From Vulcanimicrobiota bacterium (lineage in GTDB: Bacteria; Vulcanimicrobiota; Xenobia; Xenobiales; JADMJV01), in NCBI GenBank assembly GCA_050250895.1, contig JBFWNU010000002.1:567659-631658 (forward strand): 64,000 nucleotides of DNA. Reading direction: 5' to 3'. The notes below the pieces were generated by a model. The model saw only the letters and a list, made by a program, of their open reading frames with translations. It was not told the DNA's origin and ran no database searches. Each line of letters begins with the position of its first letter. Positions within the stretch are counted from its first letter, which is position 1. The position numbers were made by a program, and so were the translations under genes. This document shows, piece by piece, positions 11,134 to 36,536 of the stretch.

Positions 11134-11176
11134 CGTCTTGTCTTCGTTATTCGTCGCCCGAATTCCGTCGAGCAGG

Positions 11177-12091: not shown

Positions 12092-12155
12092 GATTTTCTC
12101 CTGCCGGTCACTCGCTGATTGTAGATTAGCATCCGGGTCTGAAAGAAAGCTGAAC

Positions 12156-13355: not shown

Positions 13356-13356
13356 A

Positions 13357-13730: not shown

Positions 13731-13757
13731 GCAGGGGTGGGACCCGAAGGCGACGGC

Positions 13758-15570: not shown

Positions 15571-15606
15571 GGGGAAACCCTTCTGAACCCGACGGGAGAG
15601 TCCCCG

Positions 15607-19100: not shown

Positions 19101-21137
19101 AGCGCCGGCGGCCAGCGCGGCCGCCACCAGGGGAGTGGCCGTGCCGGCGGTGCCTACCACCACGGCTACCGAGGCGGCTGTGGCGGCCACCGTGCCAATG
19201 GCTTCGCCAGCGCTATCCTCGGCCTTGCGATAGGTTTCGACATCGGCATCCGAGTAGCCGAGCAGCTGGTTGAGTCGCTGCTTTTCGAGCTGGGCGTCTT
19301 CGCTGCGGCCCTCGCGCAGGGCCTGCTGATAACGCTCGTACTGCTCGTTGGCCCGGTCGGTGTTGGCATCGAGCAGCTTACCCTTGTCGGTGAAGGTGTC
19401 CATGATGGCCCGACTGGCCAGGTTGGAAAGCCCCTTGCGCTCATAGTCACGCCGCTCGTTGGCCTGCTCGAGCGCTTCTTCCACCGACTCGGCCTTGCCC
19501 TTGAGGGCCATGGTTGCGTCGAACTCGTCGCGGCCCGACAGTTCGCCTTTGAGGTCTTTGTCTAAATCGCGACCGGTCTCGGCCTGGTAATCTTGGCGCA
19601 GAGCTGCGATCTCGTCTTTAGTCTTGCCTTCAAGGACCTTCTTGATGGCCTCCTCATCGGTGCCCCAGCCGTCCATGGCGTATTTGAGCTTGGCCGCGTC
19701 GCTGACGTCGCCCTCACTCAGCAAACGGTTGGCCTTCTCGAGGTCGTTGCCGCCCATTTCGTCTTTGAAAGCGTCCTTGAGGTCAACCTTGTATTTGTCC
19801 TTATAGGCCGCCAGGATGGCGTCGCGCTCTTCTTTTGACTTGCCTTCGAGGGTCTGGAAGATCTCCTTTTCGTTGGTTCCCCAGCCGTCCATGGCATCGT
19901 GCAGCCGGGCGGCGTCCGCCTCGGCGGTCTTGCCGTCGAGCAGGCCTTCGGCCCGGGCGCGCTCGTCCTGGTTGAGTCGCTCTCCCATGCGCGAGCGCAG
20001 GGAATGACCCGTCAACTTCTGGTACTCGTCCTCGATGGCCGCCCGTTCTTCCTTGCTCTTGCCTTCGAGGGTCTTGTAGACGGCCTCTTCGTCGTCGCCG
20101 AAGATTCCCGACATGGCGTCCTGCAGTTTGGCCGCATCGGCTTTGGCGTCGTCGCCTTCGAGCAAGGAGAGAGCTTGACTCTGCTCGTTCTTGTTGAACC
20201 GTTCCTTGATGCGTTTGTCGAGGTCTTTACCGGTGAGCTTCTTATACTCTTCTTTGATTTCGGCACGTTGCTCGGCGGTCTTGCCTTTGAGGGTCTCGTA
20301 GACGGCCTCTTCGTCGTCGGTCAACCCGCTCATGGCGTCGCGGATCTTCATGGCGTCGGCCTTGGTGTCGTCGCCCTTCATGAGCGACTCGGCCCGTTGA
20401 AAGTCCTTGGTGCCGAGCTCTTCCTTGAGGTCTTTCATCAGGTCGCGGCCGTAGTGGTCGCGATAGTTCTCTTTGAGGGCCTTCATCTCTTCGGGCGACT
20501 TGCCCTTGAGGGCCTTGAAAACGGCGTCTTCGTCGGTACCCCAGCCGGTCAGGCCGCCTTTCATCGCCTCGTAGAGGTCGGTGGCGTCCCTGGTCGGGTT
20601 GTAGTTGGCCGTCTGCGTCTTGGGGTGGTCCTTGGGGGAAACGGTCTGCGGCCGCGGGGCCGGCGGTCCCTGGCGCTGTTCCTGGGGTTGGCGTTGCTCT
20701 TGCGGTTGGGGACGGGTGGGGCGTTCTTGAACCTGAGGACGTTGCCACTGCTGGGGCGGCACCCAGGGGCCAAAGAACTCTTCGTCGGGACTCTGCGGAT
20801 AAAATCCGCCGGGCATGCCGGGTTGGCCCTGCGGTTGCTGGCCTCGGGGCGGCTGGAAGAAGTAAGGAAGATCGTTGAAGGGTTGATAGAACCCGGTCTG
20901 GCCGTGGCAGGGGCATTGCCATCCCCCCTGGGCCATGCCGCTCTGCATGAAGTTCATCAGCATCTGCGAGAGCATCATGGCGTTGAAGTCGAAACCGAAA
21001 CAGGGCCCCATGGGAGGCGCGAACATGGGCGGACCCAGCAGCATCGAGGCTCCCTGATTGATTCCGCCATTCCAAGAACAGCCGCCCGCCGGACCGGCGT
21101 AGAAATTGAAATTAAGGCCGCCAGTGACCTGTTGCAT
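16119..21137 (-). CDS. Large annexin-repeat protein with hydrophobic segment, 72-aa repeats and calpain/papain-like Cys protease domain
   Basis: Five repeats of type DA..L..AM.G(W)GTDE.....L.GK...E....Y....G.DL...L..E; QGNRGTC, LHAV and IRNPWG motifs; AGGAGG RBS. Confidence 0.85.
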   Translation of the reverse strand: MQQVTGGLNFNFYAGPAGGCSWNGGINQGASMLLGPPMFAPPMGPCFGFDFNAMMLSQMLMNFMQSGMAQGGWQCPCHGQTGFYQPFNDLPYFFQPPRGQQPQGQPGMPGGFYPQSPDEEFFGPWVPPQQWQRPQVQERPTRPQPQEQRQPQEQRQGPPAPRPQTVSPKDHPKTQTANYNPTRDATDLYEAMKGGLTGWGTDEDAVFKALKGKSPEEMKALKENYRDHYGRDLMKDLKEELGTKDFQRAESLMKGDDTKADAMKIRDAMSGLTDDEEAVYETLKGKTAEQRAEIKEEYKKLTGKDLDKRIKERFNKNEQSQALSLLEGDDAKADAAKLQDAMSGIFGDDEEAVYKTLEGKSKEERAAIEDEYQKLTGHSLRSRMGERLNQDERARAEGLLDGKTAEADAARLHDAMDGWGTNEKEIFQTLEGKSKEERDAILAAYKDKYKVDLKDAFKDEMGGNDLEKANRLLSEGDVSDAAKLKYAMDGWGTDEEAIKKVLEGKTKDEIAALRQDYQAETGRDLDKDLKGELSGRDEFDATMALKGKAESVEEALEQANERRDYERKGLSNLASRAIMDTFTDKGKLLDANTDRANEQYERYQQALREGRSEDAQLEKQRLNQLLGYSDADVETYRKAEDSAGEAIGTVAATAASVAVVVGTAGTATPLVAAALAAGAGAGTRVVASAAVKGGSYGVGDMGTDAAIGAVDGLATVAGMGAGKAAVAGLRASESALAGSRVAMLATEGAVDGMIGGAMSAGGAEALRDGTWDNGFGAGLQRVGMATGMGASLGAVAGGGMAAAIGGAPALVRNTRQGWDKMAAGGRRAMEMGGDLASRAGEKARVVWGQIRELDAGSRQALRRALNSGDGTGLTGHAKALWQKSRELDHAALDKLKGLWQKSRDLDHAAFDKVKGLMGGGGEGRMGQLGETAKNWYARARELDGAALDKLKGAFRTGDGSGLTGQAKALWQKSRELDGAALDKLKGLMGGGGEGGRLGQMGDTVKGWFDKATALDRRALDQLKGAFKSGDGSGLTGQARALWQKSREMDGAALDKLKGMLGGGGEGGRLGQMGDTVRGWVDKAKALDGQALDKLKGAFRTGDGSNLTGQAKALWQKSREMDAAALDKLKGMLGGGGEGGRLGQMGDTVNGWLGKARELDGQALDKLKGAFKTGDGSGLTGQARALWQKSRELDQAALGKLKGMLDGGGAPPPVLKDVPVPPPLPPVRTVADQVAGFADQPMLGRFRNIDKFREMAPDQQLKVLELANKHKPEAGFFDGIFGTAKPNRVEGNLARLAREGKLNQLDHRGQTLLDNLVELDNAPLIASLNRGQYFDEVLETVTTPGTIRQGNRGTCSGSSCQYVHAKSDPADYVRVMTGLGEESGEVTLKTGRRFYRNESGVAADNSTRRSADRIYQSTAMDHVSRRYDNNVTGSKGGVGGHLKDDGSLDYGGLSDKHARQILEDVGGRKIVDHGYSNGAKHRSDFEQLVRQAEERGEPIHATLDWFKGDPDGGLHAVNIERVDDDFVYIRNPWGADDVGQTTKNAPVRQVLDKEGRSRIAKDVFYDRLYSYRHEARPTDLMLARIENIENNMAHIGEIKDVGLDRFQRAYPEVRFPKGQEMEAMDAFRAKMLDIRKTLWSGNPSAGEMQAMVKELDEFMKPYGVPDFGTKFIA
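17520..18620 (-). repeat. Intragenic 216-bp (72-aa) tandem repeat, about 4.5 copies
   Basis: The LWQK-encoding motif recurs at 17574, 17790, 18006 and 18222 (period 216), then at 18435 and 18489. Confidence 0.9.
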
Positions 21138-21232: not shown

Positions 21233-21892
21233 TCAAGTCTGGCGCCGGCGCCTGAGCACGCCCCCCAGAATGCGGGCGAAGTCCTGCCGAGCGTCGCCTT
21301 CGGTGATACCCTGGTTGGTTCGGTGGATCCGGCGTCGCACCAGCACCTGGTCCACCATCGTCACCGTAGCTCCCGCCTCTTGAGCCCGGGCATACCAATC
21401 GATAAATTCGCCCACCTTCCAACCGGTGGCGAAGGGTCCCACCCGCTCGAATAGCCTGCGCCGCGCCAGCAGAGTAGAAGGCAGTTTGCCGGGCATCGGC
21501 TCGGTGCGCACTAAATAGGGATGGTTCGGATCGAGTTCTGGGCTCAAGAATTCCTCTACCAGGGTGAAGACCAGTTCGACCTCGGGCCCCAGACTGGACA
21601 GCTGCAGCTCGAGTTTGTCCGGCAGCCAGAGGTCGTCGGCGTCGAGAAAGGCTACCAGAGGATGGTGACTCAGTTCGAGGCCCCGATTCCTGGCCGCGGC
21701 CGCTCCCGATTGGGACTGGCAGTGATAGTGCACGGGGAATTGGGCCGCCACCTGGGCGGTGCCATCGGTCGAACCGTCGTCGATGACCCAGATGTCGTCA
21801 GGCCGATGGCTCTGCGCCAGCAGGCTGCTCAGGGCTTCGGCCAGATATCGCTCTCCGTTGTGCACGGGTAGGATGACGTCGATCTTACTCAA
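21233..21892 (-). CDS. GT2-family glycosyltransferase
   Basis: VILPVHNG, IDDGSTD, AARNRG, FLDADD. Confidence 0.92.
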   Translation of the reverse strand: MSKIDVILPVHNGERYLAEALSSLLAQSHRPDDIWVIDDGSTDGTAQVAAQFPVHYHCQSQSGAAAARNRGLELSHHPLVAFLDADDLWLPDKLELQLSSLGPEVELVFTLVEEFLSPELDPNHPYLVRTEPMPGKLPSTLLARRRLFERVGPFATGWKVGEFIDWYARAQEAGATVTMVDQVLVRRRIHRTNQGITEGDARQDFARILGGVLRRRRQT

Positions 21893-22871
21893 GGAGTTCT
21901 CTCAGCTTCTCGGCGCCGCCCGCTCGCGTGGCAAGCTCCAGGCGGTAGCAAGGCAACCGGCGCGAGAGTCGAGCCAGAGCGGCAAAGGTCGCCTGGCTGT
22001 CTCCAGGCAGTTGGAAGACCGTGCTCGGGGCCAGAGCCAGCAGAGCTTGGGCGGGCGTTACCGGGGTGAGAACGTCCTTTTGGCCCAATTGCGGCATCAC
22101 GATGGCTCGCAGACCGAGTCCGTCCGCCAATCGGTGGCCCTGGGAGCGGGCCAGGAAGGTCACGGCTTTGGGCTCCTGGTCGGAATTCATCGGCTCAAAC
22201 CACGGAAAGTGAGGCAAATCGTGACGATGCAGCTTGGCGGAGCAATACAGACCGTGCACCAGTAGTTGCTCGATGTCGACCAGGCAATAATCCTCGCCCA
22301 CGAACTCGAGGCCCGCCTCGAGGCTGGCCAGGGCCAGATTGGATTTGCCCGAGCCGCCTCGACCGGGCAGCAAGACGGCCACCCCGGCCCGGCCCACCGC
22401 CGCCGCATGCAGCATGCACTTCGAGCGGCTGCCTAGCAGCCGACTAAAGATCACTCGAAAGGGCGCGGCCAGCTCGTAATAAGGAAGGCGTTCGGCGGCC
22501 GGAGCCCAGTAAAAACCGTGACCGGTTTCCAGGTCTATCATCCGCAGCAATTGTTCTTCCCCCTCGAACACGGTCAAGAACCGGGCATCCGACATGTCCT
22601 CGATCCGGGCGCGCGGCCCAAAGGACTGGGGCCTCCAAGGCGGCGAGGGCAGAGGCGCCTGGGCGCCGTGCCAGGCGAAGATAGTGAAGTCAGCCTGTGC
22701 GCCCCCGCTAGCATGGTGGGCCAGGGCCGGCAGGAGCTTTGCGGTGAGGGGCTCGGCCAGAGCCAGTTCGACGGTCAGGTTGGCGATGACCAGGCGATGA
22801 CGGGTCAGGGCCAGCTCGGCCAGCACCTCACGACAATCTTCGGCGAACCGTTCGGCCAGACTGACTACCAA
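21885..22871 (-). CDS. HPr kinase-like P-loop kinase
   Basis: LHAAAVG..VLLPGRGGSGKS..FVGEDY; start codon uncertain. Confidence 0.8.
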   Translation of the reverse strand: MVVSLAERFAEDCREVLAELALTRHRLVIANLTVELALAEPLTAKLLPALAHHASGGAQADFTIFAWHGAQAPLPSPPWRPQSFGPRARIEDMSDARFLTVFEGEEQLLRMIDLETGHGFYWAPAAERLPYYELAAPFRVIFSRLLGSRSKCMLHAAAVGRAGVAVLLPGRGGSGKSNLALASLEAGLEFVGEDYCLVDIEQLLVHGLYCSAKLHRHDLPHFPWFEPMNSDQEPKAVTFLARSQGHRLADGLGLRAIVMPQLGQKDVLTPVTPAQALLALAPSTVFQLPGDSQATFAALARLSRRLPCYRLELATRAGGAEKLRELLE

Positions 22872-23767
22872 CGGCTGACCACCCGTCGCCAGAGATACCC
22901 GGGCAAGCCCACCAGGATATCAGCCCAACGACTCGGACAGCCGCGCAGGTACTCGCGCACGAACCCCAGCCTGAATCGCACGGCCCATTCCCCCAGTTGC
23001 TCGAAGAGATCCGGGTCGAGGGAGAGCGGCGGGTTACAGGACCAGGGGGCCAGCCTCTGCAGACCGGTCCGCACCTGGCTGGCCACCCGGCGCCGCCGCG
23101 CTTCGCAGGCCAGCAGCTCCCAGTCAATCGGGTGGCGGCGGTTCAGTTGCACCGCATCCACTCCCCACCAGGGCTCTTCCTGGCGCACCAGACTGAGCAG
23201 CAGGGCATCGCTGGGGCATGGCCGCCACAGCGGCCGGCCCAGCCAATGAAAGCTCTCGGCTCGCTCGAGCAAGCCCCGGTCGGCCTCGCTCCACCGGCAT
23301 TCAGTGAGTGCGTGCCAGCGCAGCACGAGCGGCGTTTGGCCCCGTTGATAAAGACAGCTCGAGCCTTCCTCGGGGCGGGCCACCGGCGGGCCGCCGCTCC
23401 AACCTCGTTGCTCGAGCAAGCGAGCGCAATGCCAGCGTTGCTCGGGTGTTATCAACACCGAGAGATAGAGACAGGGCCGCCAGGACTCGTCGGAATAGGC
23501 CTGGGTCATCAGGGCCGCGTCTCCGGTCGCCAGCCAGCGCACCGCGGCGAACAGCTCGGCGACCTCTTCGAGGTCTTGCTTGACCAGTTGGGTTCGGGTG
23601 AAATAGTAGCGGCGCAAGCCCGTTAGGCGCGGATGCTCGTGTTGTTCGCGAATGGCCAGCATGGGCAAAAGGGAATGCAGGCGTGGGTCGAGTTCGTCGA
23701 GCCAATCGAGAGGACCGGGTTGCGCCGGCCCGAGCAGTCTATGCCAGAGGGTTTCGAGCTCACTCAC
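22865..23767 (-). CDS. NTP_transf_5-like nucleotidyltransferase, degenerate
   Basis: Paralogue of 26327-27349 (ECRWSEADR vs ECVWPEADR), but KGAAL becomes TGDAAL and DIDL becomes YLSV. Confidence 0.7.
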   Translation of the reverse strand: MSELETLWHRLLGPAQPGPLDWLDELDPRLHSLLPMLAIREQHEHPRLTGLRRYYFTRTQLVKQDLEEVAELFAAVRWLATGDAALMTQAYSDESWRPCLYLSVLITPEQRWHCARLLEQRGWSGGPPVARPEEGSSCLYQRGQTPLVLRWHALTECRWSEADRGLLERAESFHWLGRPLWRPCPSDALLLSLVRQEEPWWGVDAVQLNRRHPIDWELLACEARRRRVASQVRTGLQRLAPWSCNPPLSLDPDLFEQLGEWAVRFRLGFVREYLRGCPSRWADILVGLPGYLWRRVVSRW

Positions 23768-24494
23768 CGACGTGACGCTCTTCCAAGAACCGTCGCACCT
23801 CGGCGTCCTGGGCGACCAGGCTCAACCTGGGTAAGGATTCGGCTTTGCCCCGACGGCGGCGACGGTCGAGCGAGTGCTTCAAGGCGCGAGCCAGATGCTG
23901 CCCGCTGAGATAAGAGTCGGCCGTCATGTTGTCGGGATGACGTCGATAGTGCAGGGCGATCCGGCTAGAGATCTCGAAGCGCCGCCCTTGCTCGCGGATT
24001 CGCATGAACCAGTCGACATCTTCGGACATGGGCAGCTCCTCGTCGATGAGCCCCACTGCCTCGAAGAGGCTTCGCCGGCACACAGCCGCCCCGAATTGAA
24101 AACCGACCACCGGCTCGCTAAACTGCTTGAGCCCTTCCCATCGAATGCGGCCCAGCACCAACTCGAGGGTAGGGTCGGCCAGCAGCCGGCCCACCTGCCA
24201 GTCGAGCTTGCCAGGGGGCCACAGGTCGTCATCGTCGATAAAAGCGACCAACTCGCCCGACGAGGCTTTAATGCCACGATTGCGGGCGGCCGAGGGCCCC
24301 TGATTGGCCTGGCTCAAGTAGACCACCTGGGGACAAGCCTCGGCCACCTGCCGGGTGTCATCGGTCGAACCGTCGTCGACCACCACGATCTCCAGGGGAT
24401 GATAGTTTTGAGCCAGCACGGATTCCAGCGCCTGGGCAAGAGTCGCCTCGCCGTTAAAGACAGGCACAATCACGCTTAAGCTCGGTCCGGTCAC
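23760..24494 (-). CDS. GT2-family glycosyltransferase
   Basis: SVIVPVFNG, VDDGSTD, FIDDDD, SEDVDW. Confidence 0.92.
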   Translation of the reverse strand: MTGPSLSVIVPVFNGEATLAQALESVLAQNYHPLEIVVVDDGSTDDTRQVAEACPQVVYLSQANQGPSAARNRGIKASSGELVAFIDDDDLWPPGKLDWQVGRLLADPTLELVLGRIRWEGLKQFSEPVVGFQFGAAVCRRSLFEAVGLIDEELPMSEDVDWFMRIREQGRRFEISSRIALHYRRHPDNMTADSYLSGQHLARALKHSLDRRRRRGKAESLPRLSLVAQDAEVRRFLEERHVGE

Positions 24495-24548: not shown

Positions 24549-26330
24549 TTGGGCGCAGAACCTTTGACCGTGCGGCGTTACCTGGCCACTCTGCTAGAGC
24601 CCGGTTCGGCTCGAGGGTTGTTCGGGCTGTTGGTGCTGACCGTCTTCACCTCGGTGCTCGAACTGGTCAGTCTGGGGGCCGTTTTGCCCTTTATGGGTCT
24701 GGTAGTCCAGCCCGACCTGCTGTCCAAGTTTCCGACCCTCGAGGACTTCCTGGCTCGCCACCAGTTGAGTCACCACGAGCTGTTGGTGGCGGTCGGTTCG
24801 GGCATGGTGGTAGCCGTCATCTTGACCAACATCATGGCGGTGGTGATGGCCAACCGGGCCCAGCGGTTCACCGCCGACCTGCATCTGAGGCTGGTCACTC
24901 GTTTGTTGCAGGGGTTCCTGAGCCAACCCTACAGCTGGTTTCTCAACCGCAATACAGCCGAATTGGCTCGCCACGTCGAGGCTGTCGAAGCGGTGACCCG
25001 GGGGGTCTTCGAACCGGCCCTGCGGCTGGCCACCCGGGTCGGCAGCATGGTGCTGGTGATGTTGATGCTGCTACTTTACGATCCGTTGCTGTTGCTTTTG
25101 ATGGGGTTGGTGCTGGGCGGTCTCTACGCCGGCGCCTATGTTTATTGCCGTCACCGGGTGCAGGCCCTGGGTCAGCAGACCTGGGCCGCCCAACGCGAAG
25201 TCAAGCTGGCCACTCACCGGGCCCTCGAAAGCGCGCGAGAAGCGCGGCTTGGGGGCTTCGAAGAGTTCTTCGTAGGGCGCGTGTTGGACCCGGTGGAGCG
25301 AGTTCAAACCATGGGTGTGGTGCGCTCGACCCTGGAAGCCGTGGCTACCTATCTGACTCGCACGATGGTGATTCTTGGTTTCTTGCTGACCACGCTCTAT
25401 CTGGTCGTCCGCTATCCCGCGCCCGAGCACGTCATTCCTTTGTTGGGGCTCTACGCCCTGGCCGGTTACCGTCTGATGCCGACCCTGCAGTTGGCCTTTC
25501 AGAGCTTCACGCTAATTCGTTCGAACCTGACGGTGACGCGGGTGCTGGCTGAGGACCTGGAACAATCGCCGCCCCAGGTCGGGGGTCCGCAGTTGGCCGG
25601 ACTGGCTTTGACCGAGGGGGTCGCCCTCGAAGAGGTGGTCTTTGGCTACGGAGAGGAACCTTGGCTGGATGTCTCGTTGCGCATCCAGGCCGGCACCCGG
25701 GTCGGTCTGGTGGGGCCTACCGGCGCCGGAAAATCCACCCTGGTGGCTCTGCTGTGCGGTCTGCTCACGCCCACCCGGGGTCGACTCCTCCACGACGGAG
25801 AGCCTCTCGAAGGGCAGCGGCTGCGGCGCTATCAAAAGAGCATCGGGTTGGTTCCTCAACATATCTATCTGCTCGACGACACCCTGGCTCGCAATATCGC
25901 CTTTGGGGTGGCCGACCACGAGATCGACGAGCAGCGGTTGTGGGAAGTGCTGGCTCTCACTCAACTCGAGGAATTCGTGCGCACCCTACCCGATGGGTTG
26001 CACACCTCCCTGGGTGAGCGAGGGGTGCGCTTTTCGGGGGGGCAGCGCCAACGCGTGGGGATCGCCCGGGCCCTGTACCCAAAACCGCAGATTCTGATTT
26101 TCGACGAGGCTACGAGCAGTCTCGACCACCGCACCGAAGGGCAGGTCACTTCGGCCATGGCGCGGGCCACCCGCGACTGCACGGCGGTGGTGGTGGCCCA
26201 TCGTCTGGCCACGGTCAAGGATTGCGACCTCATTCATGTCATCGAGAACGGTCGCCTGACCGCCTCGGGAACCTATGCCGAGTTGGCCGATCGCTCGCAA
26301 GCTTTTCGAGAGATGGCCGGGTTGGCATGA
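24549..26330 (+). CDS. ABC exporter, fused TMD-NBD (PglK/HepA-like)
   Basis: N-terminal TM helices; GPTGAGKST, FSGGQRQR, LIFDEATS, VAHR; no C39 peptidase domain. Confidence 0.92.
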   Translation: MGAEPLTVRRYLATLLEPGSARGLFGLLVLTVFTSVLELVSLGAVLPFMGLVVQPDLLSKFPTLEDFLARHQLSHHELLVAVGSGMVVAVILTNIMAVVMANRAQRFTADLHLRLVTRLLQGFLSQPYSWFLNRNTAELARHVEAVEAVTRGVFEPALRLATRVGSMVLVMLMLLLYDPLLLLLMGLVLGGLYAGAYVYCRHRVQALGQQTWAAQREVKLATHRALESAREARLGGFEEFFVGRVLDPVERVQTMGVVRSTLEAVATYLTRTMVILGFLLTTLYLVVRYPAPEHVIPLLGLYALAGYRLMPTLQLAFQSFTLIRSNLTVTRVLAEDLEQSPPQVGGPQLAGLALTEGVALEEVVFGYGEEPWLDVSLRIQAGTRVGLVGPTGAGKSTLVALLCGLLTPTRGRLLHDGEPLEGQRLRRYQKSIGLVPQHIYLLDDTLARNIAFGVADHEIDEQRLWEVLALTQLEEFVRTLPDGLHTSLGERGVRFSGGQRQRVGIARALYPKPQILIFDEATSSLDHRTEGQVTSAMARATRDCTAVVVAHRLATVKDCDLIHVIENGRLTASGTYAELADRSQAFREMAGLA

Positions 26331-27349
26331 GCGACCACCCCTTGCTTTTGCAGGCGGCCTTCGCCAGCGAGCCAGAACTGGCGCGGCAGAGCTGGGAGCA
26401 GTGGCTCGAACTGTTCGGCCATCAGGTGCTCGACAGCGATCAGACGCGATTGTTGCCGCTGCTCTATCGTCGCCTCGGCGCTCAGGTGCCGGGCGCTGGC
26501 GTGCTCAAACACTGCTACCGCCACGCCTGGTCGCGCTCGCGCCAATTGCGCCGCCAGACGGTGGAACTGGTGACCGAACTCAACCAGGTGGGGGTGGTGC
26601 CGATCTTGCTCAAAGGCGCTGCCCTGGCCAATTTCGTCTATCCCGACCCGGCTCTGCGGCCTATGAGCGACATCGATCTCTTGATCGCCCCGGCCGATTG
26701 GGAAGTTGCCTGGCAGCGCCTCGAGCAGCTGGGCTGGCGCTATTGGGGCTGGGCTAGCCATACTTACACTTTCAGTGATTCCGAGGGCCATGAACTGGAT
26801 GTGCACCGTTACTCGGTGCCAGAGTGTGTCTGGCCCGAAGCCGACCGCGAGTTTTGGCGACGCAGCCGCGAGGTCGATCTCGAGGGGGCGCGGGCTCGCA
26901 TTCTGGGCCCCGAGGACCAGCTGCTGCACCTGACCCTTCACGCCGTGCGTTCGCCGGGGCGCTGCCTGGTGGCTGACGCCCTCACCCTGCTCGGGAACCA
27001 TTGGCTCGACTGGGATGCCTTCTACGCTGAGGCACGGGCCCGCCGGGTGTTGGGCCAGGCGGTGGAAGGGGTCCAGCAGCTGGGGCACTGGCATGCCTGC
27101 CCCGCCGCGCCAAGGCTGAGCTGGCGCGAGCAACTCGAACACCGTCTGGCGGTGCGGGCCCGCAGCTGGGTTCCAGCCAACTACCTCTGGCAGTATCTGC
27201 TCTATTGCCGGGGCCACCGCCGGCGCGGCTCGCTACGGCTCTTCTTGCGCGAGCTCTGGGGGGTTCGCCCCGAGCAGACCCTGGTCGCGAGGTTGGTCGA
27301 GAAAATCATCGCGCGAGGAGGCCGGTCCTCGGGAGCGAAGCGAGGTTGA
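26327..27349 (+). CDS. NTP_transf_5-family nucleotidyltransferase
   Basis: LLKGAAL..Y..PALRPMSDIDLL, LDVH, PEDQLLH; ATGA overlap with the ABC gene. Confidence 0.88.
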   Translation: MSDHPLLLQAAFASEPELARQSWEQWLELFGHQVLDSDQTRLLPLLYRRLGAQVPGAGVLKHCYRHAWSRSRQLRRQTVELVTELNQVGVVPILLKGAALANFVYPDPALRPMSDIDLLIAPADWEVAWQRLEQLGWRYWGWASHTYTFSDSEGHELDVHRYSVPECVWPEADREFWRRSREVDLEGARARILGPEDQLLHLTLHAVRSPGRCLVADALTLLGNHWLDWDAFYAEARARRVLGQAVEGVQQLGHWHACPAAPRLSWREQLEHRLAVRARSWVPANYLWQYLLYCRGHRRRGSLRLFLRELWGVRPEQTLVARLVEKIIARGGRSSGAKRG

Positions 27350-27780
27350 TGACCGAGTTGAGTTATGAGTTGAGACGTCCGGATGTCGTGAGTGAAGAGA
27401 TCGAGGGCGAAGTCGTGGTGGTCCATCTGGTGAAAGGCCTGTATTACAGTCTTCAGGGCAGTGCCGCTGCCATCTGGGAGCAGCTGCTGCTCGGGGTGCC
27501 GGTGCGTGAAGTCAGCGAGCGTCTGGCGCCTCGCTATTCCGTCGAGCGGCCGCTCCTGGAACAGGCCGTGGTGGCGTTCGCCGAGCAGGTCCTCTCGGAA
27601 GGGCTGCTGGTCGCGCGCACCGCTCCCCCCAGCTTGCCTCCGGCCCGTCACCATGGGCGGGCCGAGGATTTCCAGGCCCCCGTGCTCGAGCGCTTTGACG
27701 ACATGCAAGAACTGCTGGTGCTCGACCCGATCCACGAGGTCGATGAGTCGGCCGGGTGGCCCCATCGCCGGGCTGTTTGA
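27349..27780 (+). CDS. PqqD/RRE-family protein with C-terminal leader-like tail
   Basis: VVSEEIEGEVVVVHL..GLYYSL...AAAIWE, then FQAPVLERFDDMQELLVLDPIHEVDESAGWP; TGATG coupling to the upstream gene. Confidence 0.85.
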   Translation: MTELSYELRRPDVVSEEIEGEVVVVHLVKGLYYSLQGSAAAIWEQLLLGVPVREVSERLAPRYSVERPLLEQAVVAFAEQVLSEGLLVARTAPPSLPPARHHGRAEDFQAPVLERFDDMQELLVLDPIHEVDESAGWPHRRAV

Positions 27781-28639
27781 TCTTTTAGCCCGCGCCGAGC
27801 AGTTTTGGTCGAGCCAGCGCGAGTTGGTCTGGCGACACTTTTCCGTCGCTGGCGAGCACCTGCGCGTCGGCAGTCCCGACAGCGAGCTGCTAGAGCGGCT
27901 GACCTGGGCGCTGGGTCCCGCCGAGCCTGGCCCGAGCGGCCTCGAGGTCAGACTCTGGTCCGGATCGCCCGAGCTGGTCCTGGAAGAGAGCTGGCGCCAG
28001 GCCCGCGGCGATTGTCCCGACTTTGGGCCGGGCCGGCTGACCCAGTGCGGGCCCGAGGCGCCGGTCTGTCTGTGGCAAGAGTCGCTCGCCTACTATTGGG
28101 TCCCGGGCCGGCTCTCGGACCACGAGCTGGGAGCTCCCTTGCGCACGGCCATCTATCTGTGGCTGGCCCGACAGCAGCGCCAACTGGTGCATGCGGCCGC
28201 CGTCAGTCGCGATGGACGAGCGGTGCTCATCGGGGGTCGGGGCGGCAGCGGCAAGAGTTTTCTCTGCCGGCACCTGGAAGGCTGGTCTTGCCTGGGCGAT
28301 GACTATGTGGGGCTGGGCCCGGGCGCGGTTTACCCGGTTTATCGTTCGCTCAAGCTCGATGGCCAGCTCGAGCGCCTCGAGCCTGCGGCCCCGGCCACCC
28401 TGGTGGGAGGTTTGCTGTTGGGGGCGGACGAGGGTCCGGCGCCGGTTTCGCGGCTGGCGCGGACGATCGGAGCCAGCACCCTGCTGCTGTTGCCGTGGTC
28501 GGACGCTGGCGACCTGGCCCGCATCGGCTCGGCTTTGAACGGGTTGCCCTGCTGGGGTTTGCCGGTCCGTCCCTCGGTCAAGGTGGTCCACCGCTGGTTG
28601 GCTCGGTTCTTTGACGCTTGCGGTCCAGCGAACGTTTGA
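27743..28639 (+). CDS. Second HPr kinase-like P-loop kinase
   Basis: LVHAAAVS..VLIGGRGGSGKS..LGDDYV; start codon uncertain. Confidence 0.75.
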   Translation: MSRPGGPIAGLFDLLARAEQFWSSQRELVWRHFSVAGEHLRVGSPDSELLERLTWALGPAEPGPSGLEVRLWSGSPELVLEESWRQARGDCPDFGPGRLTQCGPEAPVCLWQESLAYYWVPGRLSDHELGAPLRTAIYLWLARQQRQLVHAAAVSRDGRAVLIGGRGGSGKSFLCRHLEGWSCLGDDYVGLGPGAVYPVYRSLKLDGQLERLEPAAPATLVGGLLLGADEGPAPVSRLARTIGASTLLLLPWSDAGDLARIGSALNGLPCWGLPVRPSVKVVHRWLARFFDACGPANV

Positions 28640-29273
28640 GCACGGTGGCCAGCAGACGATTGTGCTCGACCATCGAGGTGTTGTCAGAGTGAACGCGTTT
28701 GTCGACCACCACGGCGTCGAGCATGACCCCTTCGACCCCCAGGTCACCGGCCCGAGCGAACCAGTCGACGTCGTGGGCGTTGGGATAGGCCGGGTCGAGC
28801 AGGCCCACTCGCTCGAAGGCGCTGCGATGAGCCAAGAGGGTCTCCATGATCTTGCCCGGATGCTCGCCCACCAGGAGCTTGGGGCGAAAGCCCGCGGGAG
28901 TCTGGCTGCCTTCCAGAAAGAAGCGAACCTTTCCAGTGGCAAACAGGCAATCCGGGCGGGCCCGCAGGGCCGCTAGCTGGTCGGCCAGCTTGTCGGGGCG
29001 ATAGAGGTCGTCGTGGGACAAAAACGCGATCCACTCGCCTCGAGCCTGGTGGATGCCGGTGTTGTAGGCGTCGGGGAGAGTGTCACCATGTTGGGGCATC
29101 CAGCGACAAAGCGAGGACTGCTCGGCAATCTGGCGCGAGCCGTCGGTCGATCCGCCGTCGACCACGAGGACCTCGAGAGGGCGATGGGTCTGGGCCTGGA
29201 TGCTGGCCAGGGCCTGGCCGAGGAAAGCCTCACCGTTCTTCACACAGACCACCACCGAAATCAGCTCGCTCAT
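28578..29273 (-). CDS. GT2-family glycosyltransferase
   Basis: ISVVVCVKNG, VDGGSTDGS, FLSHDD, HDVDWF. Confidence 0.9.
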   Translation of the reverse strand: MSELISVVVCVKNGEAFLGQALASIQAQTHRPLEVLVVDGGSTDGSRQIAEQSSLCRWMPQHGDTLPDAYNTGIHQARGEWIAFLSHDDLYRPDKLADQLAALRARPDCLFATGKVRFFLEGSQTPAGFRPKLLVGEHPGKIMETLLAHRSAFERVGLLDPAYPNAHDVDWFARAGDLGVEGVMLDAVVVDKRVHSDNTSMVEHNRLLATVLKRSLDRKRQRTEPTSGGPP

Positions 29274-30130
29274 CGCCGCAACCATCGCTTCCAGAAGCCG
29301 GCGCGGCAGCTGTGGCGCGGCTCCCAACCCAGCAATGCAGAGGCCTTGCGGTTGCTAAACCAGGCCTGATAGCCCTGCGGCGGGGGCTGAAAGGTGTCCA
29401 GCCAGCCCGGCAGGCCCCGTTCGAAGAGAGCGCGCGTTTCGACCGAAGCGGTGGTGTCGCTGGCCAGCAAGTAGACGGCGGAAAACGATGGAGGAGCGGC
29501 CAGGGAGAGGTAATCTTCGCAGGCTCGATGCAGGTCGCGCAAATCGAGATAGTGCCACGGGTCGATCAGGTATCCCTCGCGCAGTTGGCCAGGACCGCGG
29601 TGGGGGAGGTAGGAGTCGGTCCGCTCGGGCTCCCAGACGGCGGCCAGACGCAGACACAACACCGACATCGAGGTCTCTTGCGAGAATTGCTCGAGGAATT
29701 TTTCGCAACCGAGCTTACTGCGGCCATAGTCGTCCTCGGCGTGGCAGTCGTCGCTTTCGTCGAAGGGCAGCCGCCGAGGCTTGAACAGGCGGGGGTAGGG
29801 CTGGTACTCGCCCTGCCCCTGGACGTTGATAGTGCTGGCCAGAACGAACCGCTCGACACCCGCCTCGGCGGCCGCCCGGGCCAGGTTCTCGGTGCTGACC
29901 AGATTGTTGGCGTAGGTGTCGGGCCCCGGGTGGGGCGTGCCCGCAAAGTGAAACACCGCCTCGGTGCCGGCCACTGCCCGGGCGCAAAACCCTGGTTCGC
30001 TCAGGTCTCCCACCAGTCGCTGGGTCGGCCCGGGACGCCGATCGGCGCAGACCACCCGGTGATTACGCTCTAACAGCGGACGCAGCCTCAAGCCGATCCG
30101 TCCCGCATCCCCGGTGAACAGCAACTTCAT
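29270..30130 (-). CDS. NAD-dependent epimerase/dehydratase (extended SDR)
   Basis: TGDAGRIG, ASTI, YGRSK. Confidence 0.88.
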   Translation of the reverse strand: MKLLFTGDAGRIGLRLRPLLERNHRVVCADRRPGPTQRLVGDLSEPGFCARAVAGTEAVFHFAGTPHPGPDTYANNLVSTENLARAAAEAGVERFVLASTINVQGQGEYQPYPRLFKPRRLPFDESDDCHAEDDYGRSKLGCEKFLEQFSQETSMSVLCLRLAAVWEPERTDSYLPHRGPGQLREGYLIDPWHYLDLRDLHRACEDYLSLAAPPSFSAVYLLASDTTASVETRALFERGLPGWLDTFQPPPQGYQAWFSNRKASALLGWEPRHSCRAGFWKRWLRR

Positions 30131-30144: not shown

Positions 30145-31548
30145 CTAAGAGGCGCTCTGAACCTGTTCCTGGGCCTGCTGGAGCCGGCGGGCCCCCCGTA
30201 AGAGTAGCGACAGGCCACGCTCGAGCGAGAGGTCTTGAGGCACTTCCACCTGGGCCAGGGTCTGCACCGCCAGTTCGAGATCATCGAGAGCGCCCAGATA
30301 GAGCCGGCCTTCGCTGGGCGCCTCGTCGGCGGGCACCAGCTGGCGGGCCTTGGAGATGGCCGCCTGAAACTGGCTCAAGCGCTCGGTCAACAGCGACAGC
30401 GGAGAAGTGCCCTGCTGAAAGCCCAGGCAGGCCTGGCGCAGCTTGAGGATGTTCTCATATTCCGTGCCCTCCTGTTCATCCTCGGACAGGTCCAGCAGGT
30501 GCCGGTCGGCGCCTTGAATGGCCGGCAGCTTGACGGTACAGTGGGAACACAGGCGCCGGTGGAGAGCGTTGAGGTAGCCGCAAGAGGGGCAGGGGGCCGT
30601 CCCTTCGCGGGCGGCGACTTCTTGCAGGTGGGCCATCTGAGCATCGAGTCGATTCTTCAAGTCGCGCACCGGGCCGGCCAGATCGACCTCTTCGGCCTCT
30701 TCGACCGCTTCGGCGATAGCCAGCATCGTCTCGTCGAATTCGGCCAGGGTGTCGCCGATGGCGGCGCTGATTTCGCGAGTCTGGTGCCAGGCTTCGGCGG
30801 CCGCCGCCGTCATCTCGAAGCGTGAGGCCAGCCGGCGTACCTCGAGCAGCGCTCCCTCGACGGCCAGCAGGATGACCTCGGGGTCGGTCTGGGCCTCGAG
30901 CGTCTCGAGCAGACGGCTCACTCCCCACAGCCCCCCCTCGCGGACCCACTCGGCCGCCACCTCCGCGGTGGCGGCCAAGCGCTGGAAGGCCTGTTCCAGT
31001 TCGAGCCCGCCCAGGTCGGTGGCACCTCTGGCCCAGTCCTGCAGCGCTCGCAGTGCCTCGACCAGGCGAGCGGCCGAAGGCGGCCCTCCCTGACCGGACA
31101 GCCTTGCCTCCAATTCTCGCAAGTGGTGGTCGAGCAGTTGGCTCAGTCCGAATTCGAGGCTGGCGCCGCCCAGATAGCGACGGCCCGATTCGAGAATGCG
31201 ATTGACCCAGGCGATGGGGGTGGGGCCGTGGGCCTCCCACATGGCATCGCGAAAGGCCAGCGCCCATTGATTGACTTCGGCGTGGACCTGGCGTAGCTCG
31301 AGCAGGGCCTGGCGTGGAGATTCGGACTCGACGGCCGCCTCGGCCAGATCCTGGCAGCGGTCGAGGCGCGAGGTGATCTCTTCGAGATAGGGCTGCATGG
31401 CTTCGACCATCTCCTCGGGGTGGGGCTCGAGGGCGGTCTCGAACTGGCCCAACCACTGGCCCAGCCCATCCACGAACGCCTCGAGCAGGGGGCGGGCTTC
31501 GGCTTCGCCCTTGAGAACGCGCTCTAATTGAGCCTCGAAAGGATTCAT
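30145..31548 (-). CDS. Helical hypothetical protein with zinc ribbon
   Basis: Long Glu/Leu/Ala-rich ORF; CPSCGYLN..CSHC motif. Confidence 0.7.
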   Translation of the reverse strand: MNPFEAQLERVLKGEAEARPLLEAFVDGLGQWLGQFETALEPHPEEMVEAMQPYLEEITSRLDRCQDLAEAAVESESPRQALLELRQVHAEVNQWALAFRDAMWEAHGPTPIAWVNRILESGRRYLGGASLEFGLSQLLDHHLRELEARLSGQGGPPSAARLVEALRALQDWARGATDLGGLELEQAFQRLAATAEVAAEWVREGGLWGVSRLLETLEAQTDPEVILLAVEGALLEVRRLASRFEMTAAAAEAWHQTREISAAIGDTLAEFDETMLAIAEAVEEAEEVDLAGPVRDLKNRLDAQMAHLQEVAAREGTAPCPSCGYLNALHRRLCSHCTVKLPAIQGADRHLLDLSEDEQEGTEYENILKLRQACLGFQQGTSPLSLLTERLSQFQAAISKARQLVPADEAPSEGRLYLGALDDLELAVQTLAQVEVPQDLSLERGLSLLLRGARRLQQAQEQVQSAS

Positions 31549-31624
31549 ACCCGCTGCGAGGGTTCGGGATAGGGCCTTGTTCGCCTTCCAGGAGGCCTCG
31601 GGACTCACAGCAAAGAGGAGCAGC

Positions 31625-31984
31625 ATGCAGCAACTGATCGAGGAACTCAAGGCTCTGCACGAGGGCGTGCTGGGCCAGCCCCTGGTGGAGGAGCGTGAGC
31701 CAGAAAGGGTGTTGGCCCGACTGCGGGCCGGCGAGTCTGACTTTCCGCTCGCCTTGCGCTGGGATGACCAGCCCCACTCGGTGGTGGTCGAGTCGTTACG
31801 TTCTGAGCGGGTGTTTTTCTTCAACCCGATGCAGGCCGAGGATGTCCAGCCGGGCACTTTGCTCGGCGGGACCCGGGACGGGCCCCGTCGTCGCTCTGAA
31901 GAAGACGGCCTCGAGAGCGTTGCAGTGGAAGACTTTCGAGCGCTTTTTAGTCAGCGTCAGGCGGTTTGCCTGGTGCCCGGCTAG
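31625..31984 (+). CDS. Hypothetical protein
   Basis: GAGGAG RBS before ATG 31625; coding-like composition. Confidence 0.6.
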   Translation: MQQLIEELKALHEGVLGQPLVEEREPERVLARLRAGESDFPLALRWDDQPHSVVVESLRSERVFFFNPMQAEDVQPGTLLGGTRDGPRRRSEEDGLESVAVEDFRALFSQRQAVCLVPG

Positions 31985-33698: not shown

Positions 33699-34664
33699 AT
33701 GCGATTGGGACTTGACCTGGGTACCACCGTGGTGCGTGTGGCCAGGGACAAAAAAGGTGTAATTCTCCAAGAGGCGAGCGTCATCGCTGACGATCCGACT
33801 CTGCCGGAGGTCTATACTGTGGGCAATGAGGCCCGAGCGATGGAGGGGCGGACCCCCGACCACGTCAGGGCGCTCAGGCCCCTGCAGGCCGGATGTGTGG
33901 CCGCCCCGCTGGCTGCCCGTGAAATGCTGCGTCTGCTGCTGGGCCGCGCCCTGGGTTGGCGTAAGAAACTCAAGCCTTTTGTGCGCGTGGCCGTGCCGGT
34001 CACCGTGACCAGGTTTGAGCAAGAGGCCCTGGTCGAGGCCCTGACCTACGCCGGGGCCGGCAAGGTGGAACCCGTGCCCAAGCCAATTGCAGCTGCCTTC
34101 GGCATCGACGCTGAAGTGGGCGCCCCGCTGGCCGCCATGGTGGTGGATCTGGGTGGGGGCACCAGCGAGGTGGCTGCCATCTCTCCGGGCATCGTCGTCT
34201 GTGATGCCATCGGCGTGGGAGGGGTCGACCTGGATCGGGCCATCACGGCGCACCTGCGCATCGCTCACGGTCTCGAGATCTCCCCCGAGATGGCCGAAAA
34301 GATCAAGCTTGGCGTAGGCTCCGCCTGGCCCGGCGAGGGTCCTGAGACCTTCCAGGCGGCCGGCCGCGAATTACGCACGCTGTTGCCGCTGCGGGTCGAG
34401 GTTACGTCTGTCGAAATCCGGACAGCCATGCAGGCTCCCCTGGAGCGCATCTTCGACCTGGTTCGTCGCACCCTGGATCGGACTCCCCCGTCCCTGTCTG
34501 AGGATGTGCTGCGGCGCGGAGTGGTGCTCACGGGGGGCGGCGCTCAGTTGCGGGGAATGGCCCGCTTTCTCAGCGAGCGACTGGGACTGGAAGTGAAGAT
34601 CGCTCCCGACCCCACCGGGTGTGTGGCCCGGGGACTATTGCTGGCCCGTCTGGGCATCAACTAA
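33699..34664 (+). CDS. mreB: MreB-like rod-shape actin
   Basis: GLDLGT, MEGRTP, RPL..G, VVDLGGGTSEVA, AEKIK, LTGGGA; first gene of the mre operon. Confidence 0.85.
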   Translation: MRLGLDLGTTVVRVARDKKGVILQEASVIADDPTLPEVYTVGNEARAMEGRTPDHVRALRPLQAGCVAAPLAAREMLRLLLGRALGWRKKLKPFVRVAVPVTVTRFEQEALVEALTYAGAGKVEPVPKPIAAAFGIDAEVGAPLAAMVVDLGGGTSEVAAISPGIVVCDAIGVGGVDLDRAITAHLRIAHGLEISPEMAEKIKLGVGSAWPGEGPETFQAAGRELRTLLPLRVEVTSVEIRTAMQAPLERIFDLVRRTLDRTPPSLSEDVLRRGVVLTGGGAQLRGMARFLSERLGLEVKIAPDPTGCVARGLLLARLGIN

Positions 34665-34673: not shown

Positions 34674-36536
34674 ATGCTGTATACCGAGAGCATGGAGGGG
34701 CCCTCGCCGTTGTTGGCCGAGAAGCCCAAGCAAAACGCCACTCTGGGAGATTCCCTGGCCAATCGCGTAGCCCGTCCTCGCGTGGACGTGGGGGTGTGTC
34801 TGGGTACTTCTCAGGTGCGCCTGACGGTGGGCACCCGCGAAGTCGCCTCGCCCAGTTGCGTGGCCGTCGACTCGGCCAAAGGCAAGGTGCTGGCCCTGGG
34901 CGAGAAGGCTTTTCAGATGGAAGGGCGCGAGCCTCAGGGCGTTTCGATCGTGCGCCCCCTACGTCACGGCGTGGTGGTCGACTATGAGCGGGCTCGCAGC
35001 CTGCTCGGCTCGGCGCTGGAAGCGTCTAAGCACGGCGTGCTGTTTGGCCCGCGGGTGGCGGTGGCCGTGGCCGCCGACCTCTCCAGCGTGGAGTTGAAGG
35101 CTCTCGAGTCGACCGTCCGTGGGGCCGGCGCCCGCGAGGTCTATCTGGTCGACAAAGTGTTGGCTTGCGCGGCCGGAGTGGGTGAAGACGTGCTGGCCCC
35201 CCGCGCTCGGTTGGTGATTCAGTTGGGGGCGGGCACCACCCAGATGGGTGTGATTTCTTTGGGCAATCCGGTCGAATCCAGAGTGATGCGCCGGGGCGGC
35301 CATTCGATGAATGAACTGATCGCCGAACACGTGCGCCGCCAGCACCAGATTCGCATCGACGAGCACACGGCCGATCGCATCAAATGCCAGTTGGGATGTG
35401 CGCTGCCCCTGGCCGAAGAACGCACCCTCGAGATTTCGGGCCGCGGCACCCAGGACGGAAAGCCGGTTTCGGTTACCCTCAATTCGACCGAGGTGGGCCG
35501 GGTCATCCAGCCCGTGCTCGACGCTATCGCCGAAGAAGTGCGGGCGCTGGTGGCCAGCATGTCGTGCCAGTTGCTCACCGACGTGATGGAGGATGGAGCC
35601 ATCTTGACCGGCGGCGGTTCGATGCTACGCCGCCTGGACGAGTTCCTGGAACAAGAGACCCGGTTGCGTTTTCGCCTGCCCACCGGCCACGACCAGGCGG
35701 CCGCCTATGGCATGCGGCGCCTGCTCAACGACCGGCTGCTGCGCCAGCGGGTGTTGGCCCCCAAAGGGCGCGGGGTCGCAAGCCAACCGGGCCGCCCTCG
35801 CAACTGGCTGGTGGCCTCCCTGCTGCTCTCCACCTCGCTGTTGGTGACGGTGACTTTCGCCCGTGATATGCAGATGGGCGGGGGAGGGCTCGACGGCATC
35901 ATGAACACGGTCTTGCAGCCCGCTTACTCAGCGGCCGCACCCGAGCAGAACTGGGACATGACCGAGCGCCTGATGCTCGACGAGAAGGACCGTCGCCTCG
36001 AATCGCTGCGCCAGGAGAACCAGCGCCTGCGAGCGTTGTTGGGCACTCCGGACGGCAGGGTTCCCGAGGGCGCTCGAGTGGCTACGGTGCTGGCTCGCGA
36101 CCCTAAGGGATGGTTGAGCTTCATGCGGCTTGACCTGGGTCGCAAGCACGGCGTCAAGGTCGGCCAGGTGGTCTCCGACGGCAAGAGCCTGGTGGGTAAG
36201 GTCGACTCGGTCAGCGACGAGAGTTGCCGCGTGCGTCTGTTCGTCGATCAGTCCTCGGTGGTAGCCGGCAAAGTGCGCGACACGGCCGGAGTGGTGGTGG
36301 GAAGCACCGACCGCCAGGTTCGGATGCGTTACCTCGACCCCGACGCCCGGGTCAAACCCGGTGACAAGGTCTATACCTCGGGGCTGGACGGCGAATACCC
36401 GAAGGGATTGCTGGTGGGTCGCGTGGTGCGGGTCGACCGGCTCGAGGACGCCAATTTTCAAACGGTGACCGTCGAGCCGACCGCCGACTTCGATCGCTTG
36501 TTTGAAGTCTTGATTCTGGGAGCGCAGGGCTCTTGA
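34674..36536 (+). CDS. mreC: Fusion of a divergent MreB-like domain to MreC
   Basis: N-terminal actin fold (MEGREP, RPLRHG, LTGGGS), TM helix near 35802-35860, coiled coil LRQENQRLRALL, then MreC motifs (DLG...GVKVG, GDKVYTSGLDGEYPKGLLVG). Confidence 0.85.
   Translation: MLYTESMEGPSPLLAEKPKQNATLGDSLANRVARPRVDVGVCLGTSQVRLTVGTREVASPSCVAVDSAKGKVLALGEKAFQMEGREPQGVSIVRPLRHGVVVDYERARSLLGSALEASKHGVLFGPRVAVAVAADLSSVELKALESTVRGAGAREVYLVDKVLACAAGVGEDVLAPRARLVIQLGAGTTQMGVISLGNPVESRVMRRGGHSMNELIAEHVRRQHQIRIDEHTADRIKCQLGCALPLAEERTLEISGRGTQDGKPVSVTLNSTEVGRVIQPVLDAIAEEVRALVASMSCQLLTDVMEDGAILTGGGSMLRRLDEFLEQETRLRFRLPTGHDQAAAYGMRRLLNDRLLRQRVLAPKGRGVASQPGRPRNWLVASLLLSTSLLVTVTFARDMQMGGGGLDGIMNTVLQPAYSAAAPEQNWDMTERLMLDEKDRRLESLRQENQRLRALLGTPDGRVPEGARVATVLARDPKGWLSFMRLDLGRKHGVKVGQVVSDGKSLVGKVDSVSDESCRVRLFVDQSSVVAGKVRDTAGVVVGSTDRQVRMRYLDPDARVKPGDKVYTSGLDGEYPKGLLVGRVVRVDRLEDANFQTVTVEPTADFDRLFEVLILGAQGS

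Follow-up and report, generated by a model that had tools for sequence, protein, structure and literature searches.

Among described systems, the LPP pathway (Popov et al. 2026, PMC13381572) and the lasso peptide clusters of paeninodin and pseudomycoidin (PMC6993621, PMC9266682) stand closest to the locus analysed here. As given in these sources, LPP loci are rich in glycosyltransferases and combine a lasso-type RRE with an HprK-like kinase, a not yet characterised NTP transferase plus an exporter resembling MsbA; the leader carries an aromatic-x-x-Pro-x-Leu/Val motif, and the acceptor lies 18 residues after the aromatic residue (Tyr-16 to phospho-Ser3; PMC13381572). The paeninodin and pseudomycoidin clusters encode a kinase with a His-Lys-acid-acid set together with an NTP transferase (PadeK, PsmK, PsmN), and in pseudomycoidin phosphorylation by the kinase is followed by PsmN-dependent attachment of a hexose to the phosphate (PMC6993621). 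The kinases of this kind characterised in these sources act on Ser (PMC9266682, PMC13381572), and LppK rejected even Thr and Tyr (PMC13381572). The discrete lasso RREs TbiB1 (5V1U/5V1V), TfuB1 (6JX3), PbaB1 (9X90) and LppB (9X8Z) bind their leader in trans; a helix-3 Asp of LPP and lasso RREs (D70 in LppB) hydrogen-bonds the leader Tyr, and PbaB1, with Q79 at this position, binds Trp (PMC13381572). Fosfazinomycin biosynthesis, by its description, likewise employs an RRE, kinases and a nucleotidyltransferase, with a ribosomal peptide as scaffold for non-peptide chemistry (bioRxiv 10.64898/2026.09.23.753898).

The locus described here, from a Vulcanimicrobiota bacterium, lies within a 64-kb window (the whole stretch of DNA that was analysed). 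It has a kinase and an NTP transferase beside the RRE, which correspond to those of LPP at the level of family, and an MsbA-like transporter, and it shares the leader motif and the spacing of the candidate acceptor. It differs from LPP in that leader and putative core form part of the RRE chain, with no SpI peptidase and no separate precursor; in having Asp instead of Ser at the acceptor distance; in a Phe leader facing an Ala in place of the Tyr-binding Asp; in a C-terminus that is invariant, whereas that of LPP varies (PMC13381572); and in two or three dedicated small GT2s and an occurrence in many phyla. Unlike the paeninodin and pseudomycoidin clusters, it has no lasso cyclase (82 sequences), a B2 peptidase in only one of them and no C-terminal Ser. 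The RRE-tail protein shares fold and cleft with the discrete lasso RREs but brings its own leader and ~55 extra residues, and fosfazinomycin differs in its separate 22-mer scaffold, asparagine-synthetase-like enzyme and phosphonate cargo (bioRxiv 10.64898/2026.09.23.753898). The system works most like LPP and pseudomycoidin, yet falls outside both, having neither SpI, B2, cyclase, separate precursor nor acceptor Ser. In the literature searched (main texts, few subscription journals) we found no description of an RRE with its own leader and tail, and the tail hexapeptide occurs in 0 papers; such a protein is absent from the accessible text of PMC13381572, PMC6993621, PMC9266682, PMC12710340 and bioRxiv 2020.03.14.992123, 2023.03.08.531785 and 2026.09.23.753898; members may figure in the RRE tables supplementing PMC12710340 and PMC13381572. 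The family is thus apparently undescribed, of the RRE-kinase-NTase kind with a putative substrate built in. Its features in the window are:

27349..27780 (+): RRE-tail protein, 143 aa (RRE, linker, self-leader and invariant tail)
27364..27615 (+): RRE domain, aa 6-89, lasso B1-like fold, Ala73 replacing the Tyr-binding Asp
within 27364..27615 (+): exposed beta-sheet face of the RRE, aa 14-34, predicted by the complex model to bind the kinase
27616..27669 (+): variable Pro/Ala linker, aa 90-107
27670..27711 (+): self-leader segment, aa 108-121, predicted to pack on the RRE (DCA pairs; AF2 strand 112-116)
27712..27762 (+): invariant free tail, aa 122-138 (conservation; pLDDT ~50 in the monomer)
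27724-27726 (+): Asp126, candidate acceptor with a putative role
27733-27735 (+): His129, candidate acceptor with a putative role
21885..22871 (-): HPrK-like kinase 1, the canonical cassette kinase, PEPCK/HPrK fold
27743..28639 (+): HPrK-like kinase 2, a divergent paralogue (probable start site)
26330..27349 (+): NTP_transf_5 nucleotidyltransferase 1, DxD motif intact
22865..23767 (-): NTP_transf_5 nucleotidyltransferase 2, DxD lost, probably inactive
21233..21892 (-): small GT2, subfamily a
23760..24494 (-): small GT2, subfamily c
28578..29327 (-): small GT2, subfamily b
24549..26330 (+): MsbA/PglK/HepA-like ABC exporter without peptidase domain (accessory)
29270..30130 (-): NAD-dependent epimerase/dehydrogenase (accessory)

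The ATG of the RRE-tail gene at 27349 is preceded by GAGG and overlaps the stop of the upstream nucleotidyltransferase; positions 27670-27780 (+) are its final 36 codons plus the stop, in frame with this start, and their translation is identical to the tail stretch of the first reading. The product is the sole RRE, and carries the sole such tail, within the 64-kb window. Residues 21-87 match Pfam PqqD (E 9e-12), and the fold is that of a lasso B1-like RRE (PF05402; three beta strands followed by three helices): the AF2 model (mean pLDDT 86) finds its best structural matches in the solved RREs TbiB1 and TfuB1 (Z 12.0-12.3, rmsd 1.6-2.6 Å over 84-88 residues). True PqqD structures match weakly (E 0.04-0.08), pqqC/pqqE-type genes of PQQ biosynthesis were not found by Pfam scans of the cassette and the 40 other window ORFs of at least 150 aa, and with NCBIfam lasso_PqqD the protein stays under the cut-offs (41 of 80 and 26 of 70 bits). 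Nor is it a discrete B1 protein (stand-alone, ~90-110 aa, cleft free for a trans leader), because it has 143 aa and an extension that co-evolves with the cleft. Beyond the 18-residue linker the AF2 model shows a strand at residues 112-116 (pLDDT ~90), a short helix and a low-confidence tail (~50 from residue 121); such modelling had been suggested for the FQAPVL segment by a sequence-only reading.

A word-based search yielded 42 proteins, query included, and a profile search of 1.84 billion representatives yielded 1,439 at E up to 1e-30. The best 150 of these 1,439 were inspected, and the remaining ones probably bear the tail as well, since a tail-less RRE scores only ~65 bits. A scan of species genomes matched at least 599 stretches, of which at least 574 were confirmed; the best 80, kept as loci, span 16 named phyla, with no Bacillota among them. 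In the 234 members that are non-redundant at 80%, P127, H129, G136, W137 and P138 are invariant (234/234), and P111 (233), D118 (232), M119 (226) and D126 (233) nearly so, counts that are biased upward because the member sets were partly found through the tail. Tail positions outside the search pattern nevertheless show a mean pairwise identity of 62% in 74 locus-derived members, higher than in the RRE (38%) and the neighbouring kinases (35%), which bears out the expectation of a tail more conserved than its RRE. Position 108 is Phe in 203, Tyr in 20, Trp in 10 and Leu in 1 of the 234. The pattern [YWF]xxPx[LVIFA] occurs 45 times in the 35,711 residues of long window frames (~0.07 per 54 aa), so that the leader motif by itself is weak evidence, and it is the conservation that makes it real. 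The linker differs in sequence and length (mostly 17-28 residues), and 2-21 residues follow the Gly-Trp-Pro, the tail being C-terminal in most members.

Asp126 follows the aromatic residue of the leader by 18 positions in 233/234 members. Ser134, contained in the acidic stretch (DPIHEVDES.GWP) that the first reading had seen offered for modification, sits in an insertion that is a gap in 204/234; the position is not conserved and was ruled out as acceptor. Ser is missing altogether from aa 115-138 in 139/234 members, and 33/234 have neither Ser nor Thr from aa 119 to the end. Since the tail has no conserved Ser, the logic known for phosphorylation of Ser cannot be carried over. In distant tandem RREs (P0060, P0182), a second class of tail keeps Asp-Met, Asp126-Pro127 and the 18-residue spacing and has lost His129 and Gly-Trp-Pro. 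Inspection by eye of 19 proteins containing two or three RREs showed a single full tail in each, and most of their other RRE copies keep the leader-like strand only; the strand therefore belongs to the domain, and the tail to a separate function exercised once per chain. Six kinase fusions and four related multi-RRE proteins carry the tail at an internal position. Kinase 2 probably starts at an ATG that, like its GAGG, falls within the codons of the conserved tail, so that the two genes share 38 bases (27743-27780). This overlap seems an unlikely DNA-level cause of tail conservation, since a different type of gene follows in at least 24/80 loci: directly 3' of the RRE-tail gene are a kinase in 48, a GT2 in 11, an NTase in 11, an ABC gene in 2 and another or no gene in 8.

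Free-standing tail peptides were not found among proteins of 30-77 aa, and aa 104-143 gave no non-PqqD feature match against the Atlas, both searches being insensitive to short peptides. Four of the 80 loci (L001, L022, L060, L067) have in-frame start codons in the linker with a motif resembling a ribosome site, which could give a free leader-plus-tail peptide; we treated them as probably due to chance. The one GT87-RRE fusion (P0191) was excluded: its RRE is preceded by an internal Met, and the fusion may be an artefact of gene calling.

Co-evolution points to the leader-like strand as the natural occupant of the RRE cleft. In mean-field DCA of the 234 sequences, RRE-tail pairs make up 10 of the top 20 among 6,441, in leader-binding geometry: E84-R115 (rank 1), A73-F108 (4), G37-Q109 (5), L31-Q120 (6), Q36-E114 (7) and R9-D117 (9), together with V81-E114, R62-Q109, D12-E121 and V13-M119. 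Controls gave 0-2 such pairs in the top 20 (26 random tail swaps and 27 swaps between close relatives); plain MI-APC, dominated by noise, carries little signal. The pairs fit the geometry described for the PbaB1 and LppB complexes (PMC13381572). Alignments through PbaB1, TbiB1 and TfuB1 equate LppB D70 with residue 73 here, where Asp accompanies Tyr108 in 10/20, Trp108 in 2/10 and Phe108 in 0/202 members, the strongest association of 99 RRE columns (Fisher 3e-12). On trees built without both columns, the pair goes through 8 changes among Phe/Tyr rows; a tree-aware sign test finds none in the wrong direction and is not significant (p 0.25-0.5), because only 2-6 independent pairs are well supported. 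Asn at position 36, which corresponds to the second specificity residue of LPP, shows a similar tendency (7/20 vs 18/203) that is not significant over 99 columns. The self-leader therefore very probably docks into an RRE of its own kind, as the sequence-only reading had proposed for FxxPxL, and the couplings are compatible with binding in cis or in a domain-swapped dimer alike. Recognition of a leader by an RRE, as expected of a RiPP precursor, is thereby found by computation. No strong coupling links residues 122-138 to the RRE, though invariant columns give no signal of this kind; the coupling L123-I128 (DCA rank 2) suggests a turn that would present Asp-Pro.

The cassette genes are laid out in the window as two divergent arms and one convergent pair. 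Most loci have one NTase and one kinase (55/72 and 64/72 of the loci with either gene), and the window has two of each; the small GT2s fall into three subfamilies, and the window carries one of each. A kinase occurs in 67, an NTase in 64 and a small GT2 in 66 of the best 80 loci; in the 34 that are fully flanked (at least 9 kb on both sides) the numbers are 32, 31 and 33, with all three together in 31. Exporters are less regular (MsbA-like in 18/80 loci and 8/34 fully flanked ones, ABC-2 in 8/80 and 3/34), and epimerase relatives occur in 3/81 loci, once fused to the nucleotidyltransferase. Fusions join kinase and GT2 in 6 loci, NTase and ABC in 1, NTase, ABC, kinase and GT2 in 1, and epimerase and NTase in 1. 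Together with the co-occurrence of kinase, NTase and GT2, they tie the parts into one pathway. Six proteins, similar to each other, have the order RRE-tail-RRE-RRE-kinase and may stem from one event; two further apparent RRE-kinase fusions (L027, L056) were dropped as overlapping frames. Other neighbours are glycan genes, namely GT4, sulfo- and methyltransferases and ABC-2 exporters.

The annotated plasmid of Crinalium epipsammum PCC 9333 holds the same cassette with its genes under generic names. On this mobilizable cyanobacterial plasmid (NC_019735.1, L081) it spans 5896-17248 and adjoins a group II intron, and it can therefore move between genomes. The cassette is also present in a record titled as a Klebsiella pneumoniae MAG (L069); the other hosts are mostly environmental, and the bin may be mislabelled. 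Within the window, 16119-21137 (-) encodes a protein of 1,672 aa whose annexin repeats (Pfam Annexin, E 2e-52) are accompanied by Gly-rich internal repeats and an N-terminus rich in Gln and Pro; the gene lies directly downstream of the minus arm of the cassette and is not among the recurring neighbours in the 80 loci. Beside the cassette, a 570-aa ORF (30145-31857, -), with a CxxC...CxxC motif near its C-terminal third, and a 135-aa ORF (31577-31984, +) have no Pfam match. Farther along, an ORF at 34674-36536 (+) joins MreB and MreC domains, as a real fusion or through a lost stop, and adjoins a second MreB gene (33699-34664) and mreD-like, PBP2 and RodA genes.

Kinase 1 keeps the His, the Walker A Lys and the acidic pair of the lasso-tailoring kinases, the pair being Glu-Asp here and Asp-Asp in most relatives. 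Its model (pLDDT 96) matches ATP-dependent PEP carboxykinase over the whole length, with both domains (Z 17.9, rmsd 4.5 Å, 291 aligned); with its C-terminal domain it also matches HPrK (Z 13.5-14.4, rmsd 2.3-2.8 Å, ~130 aligned); in profile searches it matches HPrK only. For the NTase, no solved relative was found by search. A complex model of kinase 1, the RRE-tail protein, ATP and Mg scored 0.72 against 0.00 for the best control. This mark was reached by 116/157 solved and 2/215 mismatched pairs, counts that hold only roughly here because our own alignments and ligands were used. The runs agree in at least 68% of contacts, with a partner pLDDT of at least 78. In the model, the C-terminal helices 272-304 of the kinase rest against the exposed sheet of the RRE (residues 14-34), where the family-conserved E21, Y32 and S34 lie, and the interface also includes tail residues 116-123 and the kinase P-loop residue 171. 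Residues 124-138 have no confident placement, and an acceptor is not seen at the ATP. No solved complex of an RRE with such a kinase was found in structure searches, which makes recall of a like complex by the model less likely, though possible. Model, fusions and synteny together indicate that the RRE-tail protein probably binds the cassette kinase. Both the model, which had been suggested as a check, and the six RRE-tail-kinase fusions lend weight to the idea that the protein engages a neighbouring enzyme.

A separate precursor was sought in flanks of up to 10 kb per side. No small ORF recurs across unrelated loci, and those with the leader motif are at chance level (99/1,834 vs 88 ± 9 shuffled; for ORFs of 10-60 aa, 47/1,734 vs 40 ± 6), in line with the earlier remark that the precursor gene is missing. 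An LPP-type precursor, with the leader consensus and a Ser 18 residues after Tyr, was not found in these searches; in the family itself Asp stands at that distance. Two annotated lasso cyclases (asparagine-synthetase-like) had no match in 81 loci and the window by tblastn, or in 80 and the window by phmmer, and Pfam Asn_synthase had none in the scanned ORFs. A B2 leader peptidase is absent from the window and present in 1/81 loci (L058), ~9.5 kb off, beside a separate tail-less RRE. SpI-like (S26) peptidases are found neither in the window nor among 68 representatives of recurring families and the 264 singleton ORFs scanned out of 492; a screen of all 4,077 ORFs with an S26 motif gave one 83-aa candidate. 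No peptidase family recurs across the loci.

The reading we tentatively prefer, at somewhat less than even probability, is a self-loaded RRE whose tail is modified by the kinase, capped with a sugar, extended by the GT2s and retained as primer or carrier. The leader-like segment, aa 108-121, would fill the leader cleft, and the RRE would dock on the cassette kinase and feed the invariant tail to its active site. The kinase would phosphorylate a residue other than Ser, most likely Asp126 and otherwise His129. Asp126 comes first because of the fixed 18-residue spacing and because P0060 and P0182 keep Asp126-Pro127 without His129; if there is a modification, its position makes Asp126 the site with roughly even odds. 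The NTP_transf_5 enzyme would then cap the phosphate with a sugar, a step for which PsmN-dependent hexosylation is the model, and two or three small GT2s would extend it; the whole protein would serve as primer or carrier of a short phospho-glycan that is passed to surface-glycan pathways or kept as a glycoprotein. That the tail is covalently modified at all seems somewhat more probable than the opposite. The fully specified version, a reusable protein arm with an Asp or His phosphate, a sugar phosphodiester made by NTP_transf_5 and an oligosaccharide built by three GT2 subfamilies, is rather unlikely in all its parts. There is a fair chance that this kinase-NTase-RRE system has new chemistry; to our knowledge, an acyl-phosphate or a phosphohistidine would be new for kinases of this kind. 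Both are labile. By analogy only, the conserved acidic tail of LysW-type small carriers is a covalent carrier with an ATP-activated carboxylate, and borosins fuse a substrate to its own machinery.

The most serious alternative, unlikely as we judge it, is a non-covalent adaptor in which the self-leader is a structural plug and the unmodified tail docks or activates kinase, NTase and GT2s, the enzymes themselves acting on small molecules or on a lipid-linked glycan for surface-polysaccharide synthesis. The lack of a conserved Ser or Thr in the tail agrees with this, as do the leader-like strands on most tail-less copies in tandem-RRE proteins, the glycan genes nearby and the whole-length PEPCK fold of the kinase, a fold of small-molecule enzymes; LppB is insoluble without its leader (PMC13381572), and the fosfazinomycin kinases activate a small molecule, not a peptide (bioRxiv 10.64898/2026.09.23.753898). 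Tail invariance fits a docking motif equally well. Covalent modification gains, however, from the complex model, which sets tail 116-123 against the kinase including its P-loop region, and from the fixed spacing (233/234), equal to that of the LPP acceptor; exactly one full tail in 19/19 multi-RRE proteins suits one acceptor per chain, docking being also possible. If instead the protein were a classical RiPP precursor fused to its RRE, its modified tail would be cut off by a housekeeping protease, and the resulting short glyco-phosphopeptide, a linear LPP analogue, would be exported. The enzyme set is that of LPP, the peptidase excepted (PMC13381572), the window has an MsbA-like exporter, the tail is C-terminal in most members, and housekeeping peptidases free other RiPP products, for example fosfazinomycin (bioRxiv 10.64898/2026.09.23.753898). 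We nevertheless regard this as improbable, given exporters that are only accessory (8/34 MsbA-like and 3/34 ABC-2 in fully flanked loci), no recurring peptidase family across loci, a tail that is internal in six kinase fusions and four multi-RRE proteins, no free-standing tail copy in our searches, and a core that is invariant across 16 phyla where the C-termini of LPP are highly variable (PMC13381572).

An ordinary RRE with an autoinhibitory or vestigial extension, whose self-leader is displaced by a separate trans peptide, appears very improbable. Very short precursors such as the 21-22-mers of fosfazinomycin are easily missed (bioRxiv 10.64898/2026.09.23.753898), and the precursor search spanned up to 10 kb of flank per side rather than whole genomes; yet motif-bearing small ORFs are at chance with none recurring, a vestige would not exceed RRE and kinase in conservation, and residues 122-138 lie outside the cleft and are still invariant. 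In appearance the tail is closer to a retained carrier or primer than to a core that is released, and a carrier of this kind or a docking arm is favoured because the tail is invariant and internal in kinase fusions, the peptidase is missing and the exporter is accessory; with no dedicated peptidase and an internal tail in some fusions, the RRE-tail protein most likely stays whole. Of the two roles first suggested for it, "peptide carrier" fits the better; a tail that is invariant instead of hypervariable, without conserved Ser or Thr, internal in the kinase fusions and with no dedicated peptidase nearby speaks against a classical cleaved core.

RRE-guided genome mining looks for a short precursor beside the RRE, and one published precursor pipeline drops RRE-containing ORFs (bioRxiv 2023.03.08.531785). 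With the substrate inside the RRE chain the family would be invisible to such searches, for all its at least 574 genome matches and ~1,400 clusters at 50% identity; in a 2025 survey, 21% of PF05402 proteins exceed the discrete RRE length without other annotation (PMC12710340). In this family, two enzyme classes that are poorly understood have a test substrate on a single chain: NTP_transf_5, of which LppN was silent in heterologous tests and the chemistry of PsmN is unresolved, and the HprK-like peptide kinases, here without Ser. Because the cassette occurs in organisms that are in culture, such as Crinalium epipsammum PCC 9333 and Oscillatoria sp. PCC 10802, the matter can be tested directly. 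If the carrier reading is true, the cassette would represent a cross-phylum route to glycans built on a reusable protein arm, and would give this kinase class a target other than Ser.
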